A DNA stretch of 41,730 bases from an uncultured Candidatus Marinamargulisbacteria bacterium. Lineage in GTDB: Bacteria; Margulisbacteria; Riflemargulisbacteria; GWF2-35-9. The notes beneath the pieces are model-generated. The model was not told where the DNA came from. It did not search any database and saw only the letters and a program-made list of their open reading frames with translations. The first letter of the stretch is position 1. The number at the start of each line of letters is the position of its first letter. Shown one piece after another: positions 10,277 to 23,486 of the stretch. The stretch covers positions 1-41,730 of the forward strand of contig CAIUCY010000169.1 of NCBI GenBank assembly GCA_903897765.1. Reading direction: 5' to 3'. Made by a program: the position numbers and the translations under genes.

Positions 10277-10792
10277 ATGAAAGTTATACTACTTGAAGAT
10301 GATACAAAGTTAGGGGATAAAGGCTCGGTCGTTGAGGTTGCAAAAGGGTTTGCCCAAAACTTCTTGATCCCTTTCAAAAAGGCTGTTATTGCAACAAAAG
10401 GCAATATCTCGGTAATGACCAACGCTCTTAATATGACGAAGAAAAAAGTCGCGAAAGAGCAAAAATCCCATCAAGACCTTGCGGATAAACTCAGCGGTTT
10501 ATCCCTTGATTTTACTCACAAAGCAGGTGCGACTGGGCATCTTTATGGCACCATTACAACCGAGCAAATTGTTGAGTATATCAAAGAGAAGTCGGGCGTT
10601 GAGATTTCGAAGAAAAAAGTCATTTTAAGCACCCATATCAAAATGGCAGGCACGTATTCGGCCAAGATCAAATTATATTCGGGTGTCGATGTGACACTAC
10701 CCATCGTGGTTACCGCGGTCAGTGATGAAGAGATCGGCTCTAAAGAAGGCCGTCCACGTATACGAACAGCTCGTCACGCAACCAAGTTCTAA
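10277..10792 (+). CDS. rplI: 50S ribosomal protein L9, with a basic C-terminal extension of about 20 aa
   Basis: MKVILLEDDTKLGDKGSVVEVAKGFAQNFLIP matches the L9 N-terminal domain. At 171 aa it is longer than the usual 150 aa or so. Confidence 0.9.
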   Translation: MKVILLEDDTKLGDKGSVVEVAKGFAQNFLIPFKKAVIATKGNISVMTNALNMTKKKVAKEQKSHQDLADKLSGLSLDFTHKAGATGHLYGTITTEQIVEYIKEKSGVEISKKKVILSTHIKMAGTYSAKIKLYSGVDVTLPIVVTAVSDEEIGSKEGRPRIRTARHATKF

Positions 10793-10912
10793 GATCAAGT
10801 CGCATTCGGCATTATAATGTCGTTGCCTTCGTTGCGCGCCCCTCGATGTACTGGGAGTACACCTGCGGGGCTTGCTCCTAGGCGCCTAGTGCTAATACCG
10901 TTTGCTGCCTTG
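10782..10912. repeat. Conserved structured intergenic element, copy 1 (rplI-uvrC spacer)
   Basis: 10811-10912 aligns without gaps to 21005-21106 (about 70 of 102 identical by hand). The central hairpin TGTAC-TGGGA-GTACA carries two compensatory pairs relative to copy 2. A CCAAGTT motif lies upstream in both copies. Confidence 0.6.
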
Positions 10913-10941
10913 ATAAACGTAGTTCCAAAGGGTGCTAGTAA

Positions 10942-12552
10942 ATGGTAACTCCCCCTCTGAATCTTTCCGAGATCCCATCTTCGCCAGGAATTTATCTCAT
11001 GAAGAATGAGGCCGGCGAGGTGCTTTATGTTGGTAAAGCCAAGAATCTTCGTAAGCGGGTGATCCAATATTTTAAACCCACATCGCCCCTCGCTCCCAAA
11101 ATAGCCGTATTGGTCGAACAGATCGCGCATATCGACTATGTGGTGGTTCAAAATGAAGTCGAGGCCTTGGTTCTAGAAAATCAGTTCATCAAATCCCATG
11201 ATCCCAAATACAATACGCGTCTCAAAGACAGCAAAACCTATCCCTATCTAAAGATCGACTTAAGCGAACCCTTCCCAAGACTCATTCAGACACGCATACG
11301 GAAAGTAGATAAGGCCCTGTATTTTGGCCCTTTCGTGTCAGGTTATTTATTGTCCGAGTTAATGAGCGTGATCCGTGATCATTTCCACTTGAGGCGATGT
11401 AAAAAGATCCCCAAGCGAAACATCCCTTGTCTTTTTTATCATATGGGTCGATGTTCAGCGCCCTGTATTGATAAGATTACGGTAGAGGACTATCAAGTTT
11501 GGATCAAAGAGATCGCCATGCTTTTAGAAGGGCGCTATGGCAAGCTCATCGCCTCCGTGCATGAGCAAATGAGTCGAGCGAGTGATGCGTTGAACTTTGA
11601 AAAAGCGGCTCAGTTTCGTGAGCAATTAAAAGCTGTTGAGCAGCTTCGAGATAAGCAACGGGTCGAATCCCTGACCCGAGATGACAATCTTGATGTATTT
11701 TTGGTGATGATGTTTGATGACTATGTGATCTTGCAAGTATTTCGTGTAGTAGAGGGCTGTTTAGTGCAAAATTTCAGTTTTGACATGGAGACCGCCAGTA
11801 TTGAGGAGAAAGGGGATGTTTTGGCCATGGGGGTCATGCAGTTCTATCATGAGCAGTCCGATGTTCCATCACGAGTCATTGTTGATCATGAGCCAGAGGG
11901 TCTTCGGGGATGGCTTGCCGAAAGAAATATGAAATTATCTCTAGCCTCATCGAGTTCTGCCGAAGGAAATTTAATGGATATGCTTCGTCAAAATGCGTTC
12001 CATGTCATGAAGCGAAAACTCATAACCAAAGAGGGGCTCTCTTACGATCAAGTCTCAAAAAAATTAGCTGACGACCTTGGCTTATCGAAGAGACCTCGAC
12101 GTATTATCGGTATCGATATCTCTCATTTAGGCGGAACGCAAATTGTGGCGTCCTGTGTTAGTTTTATGGATGGGATCCCCGATAAAGAAGAATATCGAAA
12201 GTTTAATATCAAAACGGTGGCCTATAATGACGATTATGCCTCGATCGCCGAAGTGGTTACCCGAGTCGCAAAACGGTTTATCCCTAAGCATAGTCCCGAT
12301 CTAATATTGATCGATGGAGGGCTTGGCCAACTTCACGCGGCGATGGAGGCACTCCGTCAATTAGAGGTAAAAGAGCTTGATATTTTATCGCTCGCAAAAA
12401 AAGAAGAAATTGTTTATTTGCCGACCCGCCCGAATGGGGTAAAATTAGACCATCAACATTCGGGGCTAAAAATCCTGCAGCAAGTTCGGGATGAAGCTCA
12501 CCGATTTGCCGTACAATTTCAGCGCCATAAAAGGAAAGCGATCTTTAAATGA
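10942..12552 (+). CDS. uvrC: Excinuclease ABC subunit C, lacking the C-terminal (HhH)2 domain
   Basis: GIY-YIG (PGIYLMKNEAGEVLYVGKAKNLRKRV), Cys cluster (RRCKK...CLFYHMGRCSAPC), UVR domain (LNFEKAAQFREQL) and RNase H-like endonuclease domain. The protein ends right after RDEAHRFAVQFQRHKRK. Confidence 0.9.
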   Translation: MVTPPLNLSEIPSSPGIYLMKNEAGEVLYVGKAKNLRKRVIQYFKPTSPLAPKIAVLVEQIAHIDYVVVQNEVEALVLENQFIKSHDPKYNTRLKDSKTYPYLKIDLSEPFPRLIQTRIRKVDKALYFGPFVSGYLLSELMSVIRDHFHLRRCKKIPKRNIPCLFYHMGRCSAPCIDKITVEDYQVWIKEIAMLLEGRYGKLIASVHEQMSRASDALNFEKAAQFREQLKAVEQLRDKQRVESLTRDDNLDVFLVMMFDDYVILQVFRVVEGCLVQNFSFDMETASIEEKGDVLAMGVMQFYHEQSDVPSRVIVDHEPEGLRGWLAERNMKLSLASSSSAEGNLMDMLRQNAFHVMKRKLITKEGLSYDQVSKKLADDLGLSKRPRRIIGIDISHLGGTQIVASCVSFMDGIPDKEEYRKFNIKTVAYNDDYASIAEVVTRVAKRFIPKHSPDLILIDGGLGQLHAAMEALRQLEVKELDILSLAKKEEIVYLPTRPNGVKLDHQHSGLKILQQVRDEAHRFAVQFQRHKRKAIFK

Positions 12553-20538: not shown

Positions 20539-20987
20539 GATAACCCTTCCGTAAACCCCCTCTTTTCTAAAGAGGGGGCAGGGGGAGATTTCTGTCCATC
20601 TAAATACCCCTGCAAAATAACTGTCGCTTCTGCGCTATCTTTGATAGGGCGGCTTTTTCGTGTGTTTAGACCTGCTGCTATAAATTGTTTACTAACCAAG
20701 CTACTGGTAAGCCGTTCATCGACCCACTCTATAGGAATATCAATCTGACCCTCAAGTTCTTGCCGAAAGGCACGAACGTCAGCTGTCATTTGTGTATCGA
20801 TCCCTTTCATGTTACGAGGAAGTCCCATCACGATGAGCCGGTACGTTTTTTCGGAAAGCTGAGCTATGATCTGGGCTATCGCCGTTTGTCGAGGTAAATT
20901 GGCCACAGGAAAGGCCATCGTTTCAGAGGGGTCGGAGTGGCTGAGGCCAACAGTTTTGCTGCCATAGTCGATCCCCAGAATCGTCAT
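20535..20987 (-). CDS. ruvX: Putative pre-16S rRNA nuclease / Holliday junction resolvase-like RuvX (YqgF)
   Basis: ILGIDYGSKTVGLSHSD N-terminus and DERLTS motif. 4-nt overlap with mltG. Confidence 0.9.
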   Translation of the reverse strand: MTILGIDYGSKTVGLSHSDPSETMAFPVANLPRQTAIAQIIAQLSEKTYRLIVMGLPRNMKGIDTQMTADVRAFRQELEGQIDIPIEWVDERLTSSLVSKQFIAAGLNTRKSRPIKDSAEATVILQGYLDGQKSPPAPSLEKRGFTEGLS

Positions 20988-20988
20988 G

Positions 20989-21106
20989 CCAAGTTGTTCT
21001 CGAAAATATAACGTCGTTGTCTGCGTCTTTCGCTCCTCGACTTACTAATAGTAAGCCTGTGGGGCTCAATCCTTGTCGCCTCGTTCTCTTCCCGAGTATT
21101 TCCTTG
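20989..21106. repeat. Conserved structured intergenic element, copy 2 (alaS-ruvX spacer)
   Basis: Homologous to 10782-10912 in the same plus-strand orientation. The hairpin CTTAC-TAATA-GTAAG sits at the same offset (37 nt from the core start). Confidence 0.6.
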
Positions 21107-21143
21107 GCAACTATTGCTTGAATAGTTTATGAGCATAAAGGTG

Positions 21144-23486
21144 TTAAGTGCTTCCGAGAATTTTAGGGATTGAATCAGATATCATCGAAATATTTTCAGG
21201 AGTGCTTTCAGTTAGAATGTTCGCGGTGTATTTATCTCCCCAAACCTTCGCATTTATATTCCCCTGCAAACGTTTTGCAAGTTCAGTCGCTGAAATTTTA
21301 TTTTCTTCAACAAAAATTCGGGGAACCGAAACGGTAATGGAAAATTGGACACCATATACACCAGAGCTTGTTGTTATACTGTTTGTTTGAGTGGATGCTG
21401 CATAATTAAATTGCCTGAGATCATTAGGCGTAGTAACAATGTCCTTCGAAATTTCATGACTAAAGTGAAAGAAGGGGATTCCCGAGGAACTCGTCATTTT
21501 GTTGTCCGGATTTGATAATCTTTTTGCCTCATTAATCATTTCTTTTTCATGGTTTGCAAAAAGCTCTTTTTCAAGTCTTTTTATTTCGGCTTGAAAGGTG
21601 CTCATTTTATCCGGGATCTCAGCGGGGCTAATTTTATAAGTATTAGCGATCTGAGCGGTGAGTTGTTTCAGTTCTTGAGCTTTCTGAAGGGCACCAAGGC
21701 CGGTTACGGCTTCGATGCGTCGCACCCCACTGCTAATGGCTGCCTCAGATAAAATAATCAGACTTCCGATGTCTCCCGTTCGATGGACATGCGAACCGCC
21801 GCAAAGCTCGGTTGAGCAATCGCCCATTTTCACCACCCGAACGACATTTTCATATTTCTCAGTAAAAAGCGCCATCGCCCCTTCGGCTATTGCTTCATCA
21901 TAGGCTTTCTCTGAAATATCAACGGCAACATTTTGAAGGATATATTGATTCACTAGTGTTTCGACTGTCGGGATCTGTTCGGTCGTAAGGGCCTTGGGGT
22001 GAGTAAAATCAAAACGGAGACGATCAGGCGAGACCAATGAACCCGATTGGGTCACATGTTTCCCCAGGATGTTACGTAAAGCTGCTTGAAGCAAGTGCGT
22101 CCCACTATGATTTCGCGCCATGGCCAGACGCTCTTCTTCATTACTCGCAATAATCGCTTCGCCACCCTTACCTTTATCATGGGCCTGCCCTGAGCTTGTC
22201 GAGGGGTTATAAAACGTAGCGGCTTGTCGGGCGCGGTCGCGTTGTTGCTCCATATGTTGCTCAAACCCAAGGGTGTCAACTGTCGCGTTTTCTTCGGAGG
22301 CGATCTCAAGTGTTAATTCAAGAGGAAACCCGAAGGTATCAAAAAGTTTGAACGCATCGGCACCAGATATTGTTTTCCCATTTTTAAGGATGTCTTGAAG
22401 AAGCGATAATCCAAGTCCAAGGGTTCGGCTAAAGTTAGCTTCCTCAGAACGAAGAACGTCGAGGATCATGGCTTTATTTTCAATAAGCTCGGTGTAAAAA
22501 GGGCCATACTCATCGATGACGATACGGGCCATTTTTTCGACGAAGGGTTCATTGATGCCGAGCAATTTACCATGTCGTATAGCTCGCCGAATGATCTTTT
22601 TAAGAATATACCCCCGACCATCATTGCTAGGATATATCCCATCGCCGATCATGAACACCATGGCTCGACTATGGTCGGCAATGACATGTCGAGAATGAGT
22701 GCTTCCTGTGACGGTTGAAAGGGTATCTAAGGTTTTAAGTATCGGTGTGAACAGATCGGTTTCAAAGTTGTTGCGAACACCTTGGACAACTGCAGAAATT
22801 CGCTCTAGCCCCATGCCGGTGTCGATATTCCGTTTAGGAAGGGGGGTGAGGGTGCCTGCTTCGTCGCGAGAGTACTGCATAAAGACGAGGTTCCAAATTT
22901 CCACATAGCGATTGCAGTCACAACCCGGTAGGCAGTTTGCTTCTTTGCAGGCAGGGTCTTTTCCGTAGTCGTAATAGATCTCAGAGCAAGGCCCACATGG
23001 CCCCGTGGGTCCTGCTGCCCAAAAGTTATCCGCTTCACCCAGTCGAACCATATGATCTTTAGCGACCCCCGCCTTTTCAGTCCAAAGCGTGTAAGCGTCG
23101 TCATCATCAAAAAAAACCGAAACAAAAAGCTTTTCTTTGGCTATGCCTAATTCTTGGGTGAGGAATGTCCATGCGAACTTGATCGCCCCTTCTTTAAAAT
23201 AATCGCCGAACGAAAAATTGCCCAGCATTTCAAAAAAAGTGTGATGTCGAGGGGTACGTCCGACATTGTCGATATCATTGGTACGAATACATTTTTGAGC
23301 GGACGTTGCTCGTTTGAAGGGTGGAGTTTTTTCTCCGAGAAAATAGGGTTTGAACGGTAACATCCCTGCAATGGTTAAAAGAACGGTTTTATCCTCAGGG
23401 ATCAGCGAGGCACTAGGTCGAACCTGATGCTGATTCCCTTGGAAGTATTCCAGAAATCGACTGCGTATCTGAGCGGACGGGATCAT
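21144..23486 (-). CDS. alaS: Alanine--tRNA ligase (780 aa, short and divergent C-terminal domain)
   Basis: Canonical class II core (FFEMLGNFSFGDYFK) and editing domain (HSGTHLL, CGGSHV). The C-terminal 150 aa or so lack the usual Gly-rich C-Ala/DHHA1 motif. Confidence 0.95.
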   Translation of the reverse strand: MIPSAQIRSRFLEYFQGNQHQVRPSASLIPEDKTVLLTIAGMLPFKPYFLGEKTPPFKRATSAQKCIRTNDIDNVGRTPRHHTFFEMLGNFSFGDYFKEGAIKFAWTFLTQELGIAKEKLFVSVFFDDDDAYTLWTEKAGVAKDHMVRLGEADNFWAAGPTGPCGPCSEIYYDYGKDPACKEANCLPGCDCNRYVEIWNLVFMQYSRDEAGTLTPLPKRNIDTGMGLERISAVVQGVRNNFETDLFTPILKTLDTLSTVTGSTHSRHVIADHSRAMVFMIGDGIYPSNDGRGYILKKIIRRAIRHGKLLGINEPFVEKMARIVIDEYGPFYTELIENKAMILDVLRSEEANFSRTLGLGLSLLQDILKNGKTISGADAFKLFDTFGFPLELTLEIASEENATVDTLGFEQHMEQQRDRARQAATFYNPSTSSGQAHDKGKGGEAIIASNEEERLAMARNHSGTHLLQAALRNILGKHVTQSGSLVSPDRLRFDFTHPKALTTEQIPTVETLVNQYILQNVAVDISEKAYDEAIAEGAMALFTEKYENVVRVVKMGDCSTELCGGSHVHRTGDIGSLIILSEAAISSGVRRIEAVTGLGALQKAQELKQLTAQIANTYKISPAEIPDKMSTFQAEIKRLEKELFANHEKEMINEAKRLSNPDNKMTSSSGIPFFHFSHEISKDIVTTPNDLRQFNYAASTQTNSITTSSGVYGVQFSITVSVPRIFVEENKISATELAKRLQGNINAKVWGDKYTANILTESTPENISMISDSIPKILGST

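Follow-up and report, generated by a model that had tools for sequence, protein, structure and literature searches.

The spacers between rplI and uvrC and between alaS and ruvX very probably hold diverged, decayed copies of a miniature non-coding palindromic transposable element, in other words a MITE-like hairpin repeat. Both lie in the window, by which we mean the whole 41,730-nucleotide stretch of DNA that was analysed, from a 2.16-Mb Marinamargulisbacteria metagenome-assembled genome (MAG; here G000) that is 82% complete. The two copies have several of the features by which a MITE is recognised: they are shorter than 300 bp and non-coding, they carry terminal inverted repeats, they belong to a dispersed family, and the family shows presence/absence polymorphism. 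A MITE- or REP-like repeat was one of the options raised in an earlier note on this DNA, and it gains support from the multi-copy and patchy distribution of the family, from two empty sites in a sister species, and from related subfamilies that have terminal inverted repeats and target duplications.

The course of events that we propose is as follows. The element would have inserted into TNA or stop-codon-proximal sites in very short operon spacers, moved by a DDE transposase that was supplied in trans and is no longer detectable in this assembly. The compensatory base changes seen between copies would then probably reflect selection on propagating lineages for the ability to fold back, and not a host function of these particular copies.

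Two copies of a hairpin element in the window

The features on which the analysis rests are listed here, with coordinates in the window unless a contig is named. R1 is a covariance model that was built on the copies themselves, and R2 is a broader model.

10793-10915, plus strand: copy a of the hairpin element, full-length (R1 125.7 bits, R2 93.7 bits)
10795-10802, plus strand: left terminal arm of copy a, TCAAGTCG, with its partner CCTTGA at 10908-10913
~10820 to 10889, plus strand: conserved core of copy a (CGTTG ... GGCGCCTAG)
10838-10842/10867-10871: outer pairing of copy a, GCCCC/GGGGC
10847-10861, plus strand: apical hairpin of copy a, TGTAC-TGGGA-GTACA, inside the conserved core
20987-21109, plus strand: copy b of the hairpin element, full-length (R1 134 bits, R2 103.4 bits)
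20989-20996, plus strand: left terminal arm of copy b, CCAAGTTG, with its partner CCTTGG at 21102-21107
21032-21036/21061-21065: outer pairing of copy b, GCTCC/GGGGC
21041-21055, plus strand: apical hairpin of copy b, CTTAC-TAATA-GTAAG
21110-21143: stretch of 34 nt between copy b and the alaS stop codon
C34:16915-17036: copy between an M23 peptidase gene and a LEA_2 gene
C221:1056-1178: copy between a bactofilin gene and an rsmI-like gene

The stop codon of rplI (TAA, 10790-10792) precedes copy a and the start of uvrC (10942) follows it, both genes being co-oriented with the element. Copy b is antisense to its two neighbours and has the start of ruvX (complement 20985-20987) on one side and the stop of alaS (21144-21146) on the other. 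Pfam domains identify the products of the neighbouring genes as L9, UvrC, RuvX and AlaRS. That the two spacers are homologous, as the earlier note had claimed, was confirmed by a blastn comparison within the genome (E 3.8e-12 over 117 nt). Aligned without gaps, 10811-10912 and 21005-21106, for which about 70 identities had been counted by hand, agree at exactly 70 of 102 positions; among 200,000 random ungapped window pairs, the mean was 26 identities (sd 4.5) and the maximum 48. This alignment stands, although the boundaries proposed with it do not, and the true extents are those given for copies a and b in the list above.

A CCAAGTT motif had also been placed upstream of both copies. In copy b the motif is part of the element, being its terminal arm CCAAGTTG, and this arm is similar to the TACCAAGTYG terminal repeat of a subfamily abundant in Desulfobacterota. 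The CCAAGTT assigned to the other copy, in contrast, is coding sequence inside rplI and is found in the sister species as well; the real counterpart in copy a is TCAAGTCG. The trinucleotide TAA stands at both ends of copy a (10790-10792 and 10914-16), and may be a 3-bp target duplication.

Some further features of the window were recorded in passing. UvrC (10942-12552) has 536 aa and appears to lack the C-terminal (HhH)2 domain, as residue 524 is the end of its last Pfam domain; the protein is 89% identical to the UvrC of MAG LJ_bin-3332. A small unrelated palindrome, CCCCCTCTTTTCTAAAGAGGGGG, occupies positions 20557-20579, inside or just past the 3' end of ruvX, and is present in at least seven copies in G000 and at least nine in the sister-species genome. 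The 150-aa open reading frame of ruvX extends beyond the end of its RuvX Pfam domain (residue 130), so its tail may run through the CCCCCTCTTTTCTAAAGAGGGGG repeat. Between 25233 and 29497 there are three to four copies of a direct repeat of 55-99 nt (86% identical over 99 nt), which we see in this window only.

Copies and insertion sites in the host genome and its relatives

Searches with blastn, nhmmer and covariance models established that the window pair is not private. Using nhmmer and R1 we found four strong, full-length copies on three contigs of G000, and R2 added one further weak candidate. All four occupy short spacers of co-directional genes, 0-27 nt ahead of the next start codon, with two copies co-oriented with the genes and two antisense. 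Among relatives the distribution is multi-copy and patchy: R1 has matches in 5 of 60 relatives (6 of 61 with G000), at 1 to 25 copies each, and R2 in 17 of 146 genomes sampled from the phylum (G000 counted), at 1 to at least 24 copies each. No element was found between rplI and uvrC when other genera of the family were examined. A blastn search for annotated relatives on plasmids gave no match, and in the literature we found no description of this hairpin element family.

The most direct evidence of insertion comes from G001, the genome of a congeneric sister species, which was compared at all four G000 sites. At the alaS-ruvX junction G001 has a 2-nt spacer, and at the bactofilin-rsmI junction its genes overlap as TTGA. 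Both sites are thus precisely empty, and the G000 copies there are therefore insertions, which have split gene pairs that formerly overlapped or abutted. At both insertion boundaries, the downstream gene starts with ATG in G000 (20985-20987 of the window for ruvX; L006:1042-1044 for rsmI), while in G001 both ruvX and rsmI start with TTG and overlap or abut the upstream stop codon. The empty site in G001 also lacks the 34 nt that separate copy b from the alaS stop, a stretch for which no homology is recognisable. A target duplication is unreadable at copy b and at the copies on contigs C221 and C34, and the TAA..TAA at copy a is suggestive of one.

The other two sites are filled in both species. 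In the rplI-uvrC spacer, the G001 element belongs to a different subfamily, with arms that match copies in the genome G004, and is flanked by TAG..TAG, where copy a of G000 is flanked by TAA..TAA. Judged from these sequences, the most economical reading is of two independent hits on the rplI stop codon. The C34 copy does have an orthologue in G001, which is identical at 121 of 122 positions, and over its first ~100 nt the adjacent M23 gene is ~97% identical between the two genomes, against 70-85% for the surroundings. Across the whole block (C34:16800-17040, locus L010:1385-1625), the C34 copy and the M23 start differ from G001 at ~4 positions. Such conservation could be due to constraint in place or to a short or recent recombination tract.

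This block bears on the possibility that some copies are now exapted host elements, which might act as a cis signal for mRNA processing or stability, as a translational insulator, or as translation signals. Exaptation of this kind would be compatible with a MITE origin, but we consider it unlikely on balance. In its favour, all four G000 copies sit just ahead of start codons in tight operon spacers, and the C34 copy and first ~100 nt of the M23 gene stay nearly unchanged amid surroundings of 70-85% identity. Further, the terminal arm of the C34 copy reads TAAGGCGAGCAAC-ATG on the reverse strand, resembling a Shine-Dalgarno sequence, and in G004 too the M23 gene is preceded by an element with this antisense orientation. 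The G004 element, however, has the arms of the subfamily proper to G004, and between it and the M23 gene there is the promoter-like sequence TTGTAA..TATAAT, so the arrangement of the 5'-UTR is different. No element was found upstream of the M23 gene in G002 or G003. An RNA structure joining the C34 copy to the conserved M23 start was considered and rejected, since the fold of this leader is unremarkable (z-score -0.85). The conserved block itself could be the short recombination tract mentioned above, and the window copies are without a same-subfamily orthologue, hence no constraint is measurable on them. The M23 site may be either a recurrent target or a place where the arms have been homogenised within each genome.

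For the MITE-like origin that we favour, then, the position of the copies inside operon spacers has another consequence: they are presumably co-transcribed with the flanking genes, and would form a large RNA hairpin in the transcript.

Fold of the element and tests for RNA, promoter and coding functions

The whole element of ~120 nt (about 123 nt) is one long imperfect hairpin or rod, and RNAalifold gave a single nested rod for the four host-genome copies. It has three layers, namely terminal stems that vary by subfamily, variable middle stems, and an apical core of ~80 nt that is conserved in sequence. The core is laid out as ACTTCGTTG - stem - CCTCGAYGTAY - loop - RTACRCCTGCGG - stem' - CGCCTYGT, its centre CCTCGAYGTAY-loop-RTACRCCTGCGG being bordered by CGTTG and GCCTYG, and the loop ranges from 4 to 8 nt among members.

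The apical hairpins and outer pairings described in the earlier note exist in copies a and b at equal offset, and the compensatory changes reported for them proved genuine. In 30 copies from relatives, the 32 pairs of model R1 are formed in 91.5% of cells, compared to 33-47% when partners are slid by 1-3 columns, and the terminal helices are paired in 91-92% of cells. Changes on both sides are seen in 28 of the 32 pairs, and none of 500 shuffles reached the covariation score. The apical stem covaries in the family (UA/CG, AU/GC, CG/UA). As the 30-copy alignment had been fitted to the R1 model, the test was repeated with a plain MAFFT alignment of 24 diverse copies, from which RNAalifold recovered an identical rod with double changes in 19 of 23 pairs.

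A covarying fold is also what a family of small RNA genes with their own promoters would show, and this alternative can further point to three fixed U.G/G.U positions on one strand of the core and to the TATAAT in copy a. We nonetheless regard it as very improbable. Of the -10-like boxes that had been reported at the start of each copy, the TATAAT is indeed present in copy a, but neither TATAAT nor TATAAC is conserved in the family, and a scan of the two window copies found no promoter or terminator consensus in either; an internal sigma-70 promoter was rejected on these grounds. Rfam gave no match at the gathering threshold, none at E<=1 for six loci, and none at E<=10 for the element alone. 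Copies occur in both orientations, and some genomes hold hundreds to ~1000 of them with terminal repeats and target duplications, which also counts against it. Wobble pairs do not rescue the idea of a strand-specific RNA. Total counts of G.U versus A.C are 84 versus 16 and 208 versus 46, but the excess stems from the three fixed core positions, outside which the counts are 24 versus 16 and 44 versus 46. Balance of this sort in the variable stems is as expected for a DNA palindrome.

Orientation relative to genes has no bias among ~92 copies (24 co-oriented versus 15 antisense), and the gaps holding these copies are convergent in 18 cases versus divergent in 6. Many copies begin 0-10 nt past a stop codon, which fits TNA or YTAR targets. 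A small protein gene was likewise considered. One plus-strand frame is open in all four G000 copies, and open frames exceed those in shuffles (42 versus 27 and 168 versus 97), although the excess can be compositional. Indels in loop and stem shift the frame between members; therefore no peptide is conserved, and this candidate was rejected.

Equally improbable, in our assessment, is that the copies are palindromes of the REP/REPIN type, moved as folded single strands by a RAYT (a Y1 HUH transposase). A long hairpin with conserved structure and variable sequence would suit such a system, as would conservation of the apex and not the ends, if the enzyme reads structure. The expected enzyme is not associated with the element: Y1_Tnp (PF01797) is absent from G000, G001, G004, G011 and G016 and gives one weak match in G059, so it is found in 1 of 6 element-bearing Margulisbacteria genomes (weakly) versus 26 of 55 without the element. 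In addition, relatives of the element have DDE-type terminal repeats and 3-4-bp target duplications, and no doublet of short REPs is seen.

Finally, the idea that a DNA-binding regulator of DNA-repair genes (uvrC, ruvX, recN) has a common operator here can be set aside with near certainty, because although the window copies do adjoin uvrC and ruvX, the ruvX copy is missing in the sister species and a loop of 4-8 nt with covarying stems fits a hairpin and not a double-stranded DNA operator. The DNA-repair connection suggested earlier was dropped because the remaining two G000 copies flank unrelated genes (M23 peptidase/LEA_2 and bactofilin/rsmI), and the uvrC/ruvX neighbourhood is a coincidence.

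The apical core in other phyla and comparison with known systems

The conserved core extends far beyond the Margulisbacteria. With one genome per species, the exact pattern of the core centre was matched by at least 120 stretches, versus ~20 expected by chance according to our own estimate. The matches are in Desulfobacterota (including Syntrophales), Acidobacteriota, Planctomycetota, Myxococcota and Nitrospirota, and also in Spirochaetota, Actinomycetota, Bacillota, Gammaproteobacteria, Betaproteobacteria, Auribacterota and others, so that the core recurs in at least 10 phyla. R1 was run on 80 loci and matched most of them over its full length. Of 106 matches, 45 and 51 have the two asymmetric flank motifs on the correct side, against 7 and 0 with the motifs on the wrong side. 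As these motifs are outside the search pattern and yet lie on the correct side, the cross-phylum homology is real. Copy numbers can be high: a Bryobacterales chromosome of 6 Mb has ~1000 copies, counted from 977 terminal repeats in forward and 995 in reverse orientation, two Desulfobacterota MAGs have ~130 and ~60, and a Pirellulaceae MAG has at least 39.

In these other phyla, the core stands at the apex of MITEs that have unrelated terminal repeats and target duplications; in related subfamilies the terminal repeats are 15-20 nt long. In Pirellulaceae and Bryobacterales, the region matching R1 is the interior of a 176-190-nt MITE with terminal repeats CCCGAATTATTCATGAGC and CCTGCATTTCTCACCAC and, in both groups, 4-bp YTAR duplications. 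A second chassis is represented by the subfamily nearest to the window copies (TACCAAGTYG...CRACTTGGTA), which in a Desulfobacterota genome with ~130 copies has TNA on both flanks, the triplet being identical in 8 of 20 copies. In a third chassis, the ends are GAGCCAATTGCAA and the duplications are 4-bp TATY. The core can also be exchanged within one genome. In a 400-kb sample of the Bryobacterales genome G061 (L264-L283, 3.0-3.4 Mb), 42 of 64 MITEs contain the core, while the remaining 22 have a GGCCGTGATTCGTG-rich module in place of the 5' half of the core, and intermediates that retain the core 3' half alone break at the apical loop. From these mosaic copies, the core behaves as an exchangeable module on different chassis. 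Separately, an IS1380-family copy was noticed in G061 inside a MITE, at the internal CTAG of that MITE.

A source of transposase is visible in part of this range. The Bryobacterales and Pirellulaceae genomes both hold several intact IS1380-family transposase genes (PF13701), and the ends of these IS1380-family elements match the local MITE ends over ~20 nt; the core is absent from them. An origin of the core as the fused ends of a parent IS was therefore rejected, given that IS1380-family elements share just these ~20-nt terminal repeats with the MITE. Nearer to the window, PF13701 was not found in G000, G004 or G059, no autonomous element with matching ends was found in G000 or in G004 (which has 23-25 copies), and no autonomous partner for the TACCAAGT subfamily was found in G151. 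Since the host MAG is incomplete and insertion sequences are often unassembled, a missing transposase is weak evidence of absence. On contig C34 of G000, 0.8 kb from the C34 copy, there is a 385-aa open reading frame (L005:2918-4075) that by eye resembles a transposase of the IS256/Mutator type; no link between it and the element ends was seen.

Because the core is not derived from the ends of a parent IS, ordinary MITE biology leaves its sequence conservation across phyla unexplained. MITE interiors are expected to drift, and here one hairpin core keeps its sequence and asymmetry over at least 10 phyla and occurs together with terminal repeats and target duplications of at least three unrelated kinds. 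We tentatively raise the idea, without expecting it to be correct as a whole, that the ~80-nt apical core is a selected and horizontally spreading structured module, which would act as folded single-stranded DNA or RNA and would travel on unrelated MITE chassis of many phyla or insert at their apex, with some copies (e.g. the one upstream of the M23 gene) co-opted by the host. As to what it might do, our preferred guess is a portable fold-back module from which any chassis gains, either in transposition or in being tolerated. Should the core have such an effect, it would serve bacterial MITEs as a portable accessory module; should it work as RNA, it would rank as a very widespread motif that was not found in Rfam 15. 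A covariance model of the core would in addition flag a frequent source of contig breaks, and of false calls of a 'novel sRNA' or 'riboswitch', in MAGs.

Several known systems share some of these properties. Among them are the Correia elements of Neisseria (CREE/NEMIS) and the ERIC/IRU elements of Enterobacteriaceae, which are non-coding, imperfect intergenic palindromes of 100-160 bp that are co-transcribed and form long RNA hairpins. Each of these families is confined to one genus or family of bacteria and is defined by its ends. Our element is a scattered intergenic palindrome of similar size, also with a terminal-repeat architecture, but its ends vary by subfamily while the ~80-nt apical core is common to at least 10 phyla, and we see no sequence similarity to either family.

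MITEs mobilised by IS1380-family elements, and the IS5-type YTAR target, have a parallel among the relatives, as those of Bryobacterales and Pirellulaceae carry ~20-nt IS1380 ends and 4-bp YTAR duplications. The copies in G000 differ in that the genome is without PF13701, their termini are CAAGTYG...CCTTG, and TNA flanks the abundant subfamily to which they are related; nor is the element interior a deletion derivative of an IS. The REPIN/RAYT systems are similar in having long hairpin repeats in which pairing is maintained, and are different in that here neither a RAYT association nor a REP doublet is seen, and terminal repeats with target duplications occur in relatives.

Rickettsia palindromic elements (RPE) are likewise palindromes of ~100-150 bp with few stop codons, but our four copies are intergenic, and their indels shift the frame and leave no conserved peptide. 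The attC sites of integrons, lastly, are imperfect palindromes of similar length in which structure is conserved above sequence. The element described here differs from attC in that its copies are dispersed on both strands and form no cassette arrays, and it is organised the other way round: attC has conserved ends (R boxes) and a variable centre, whereas this element has variable ends and a conserved centre.
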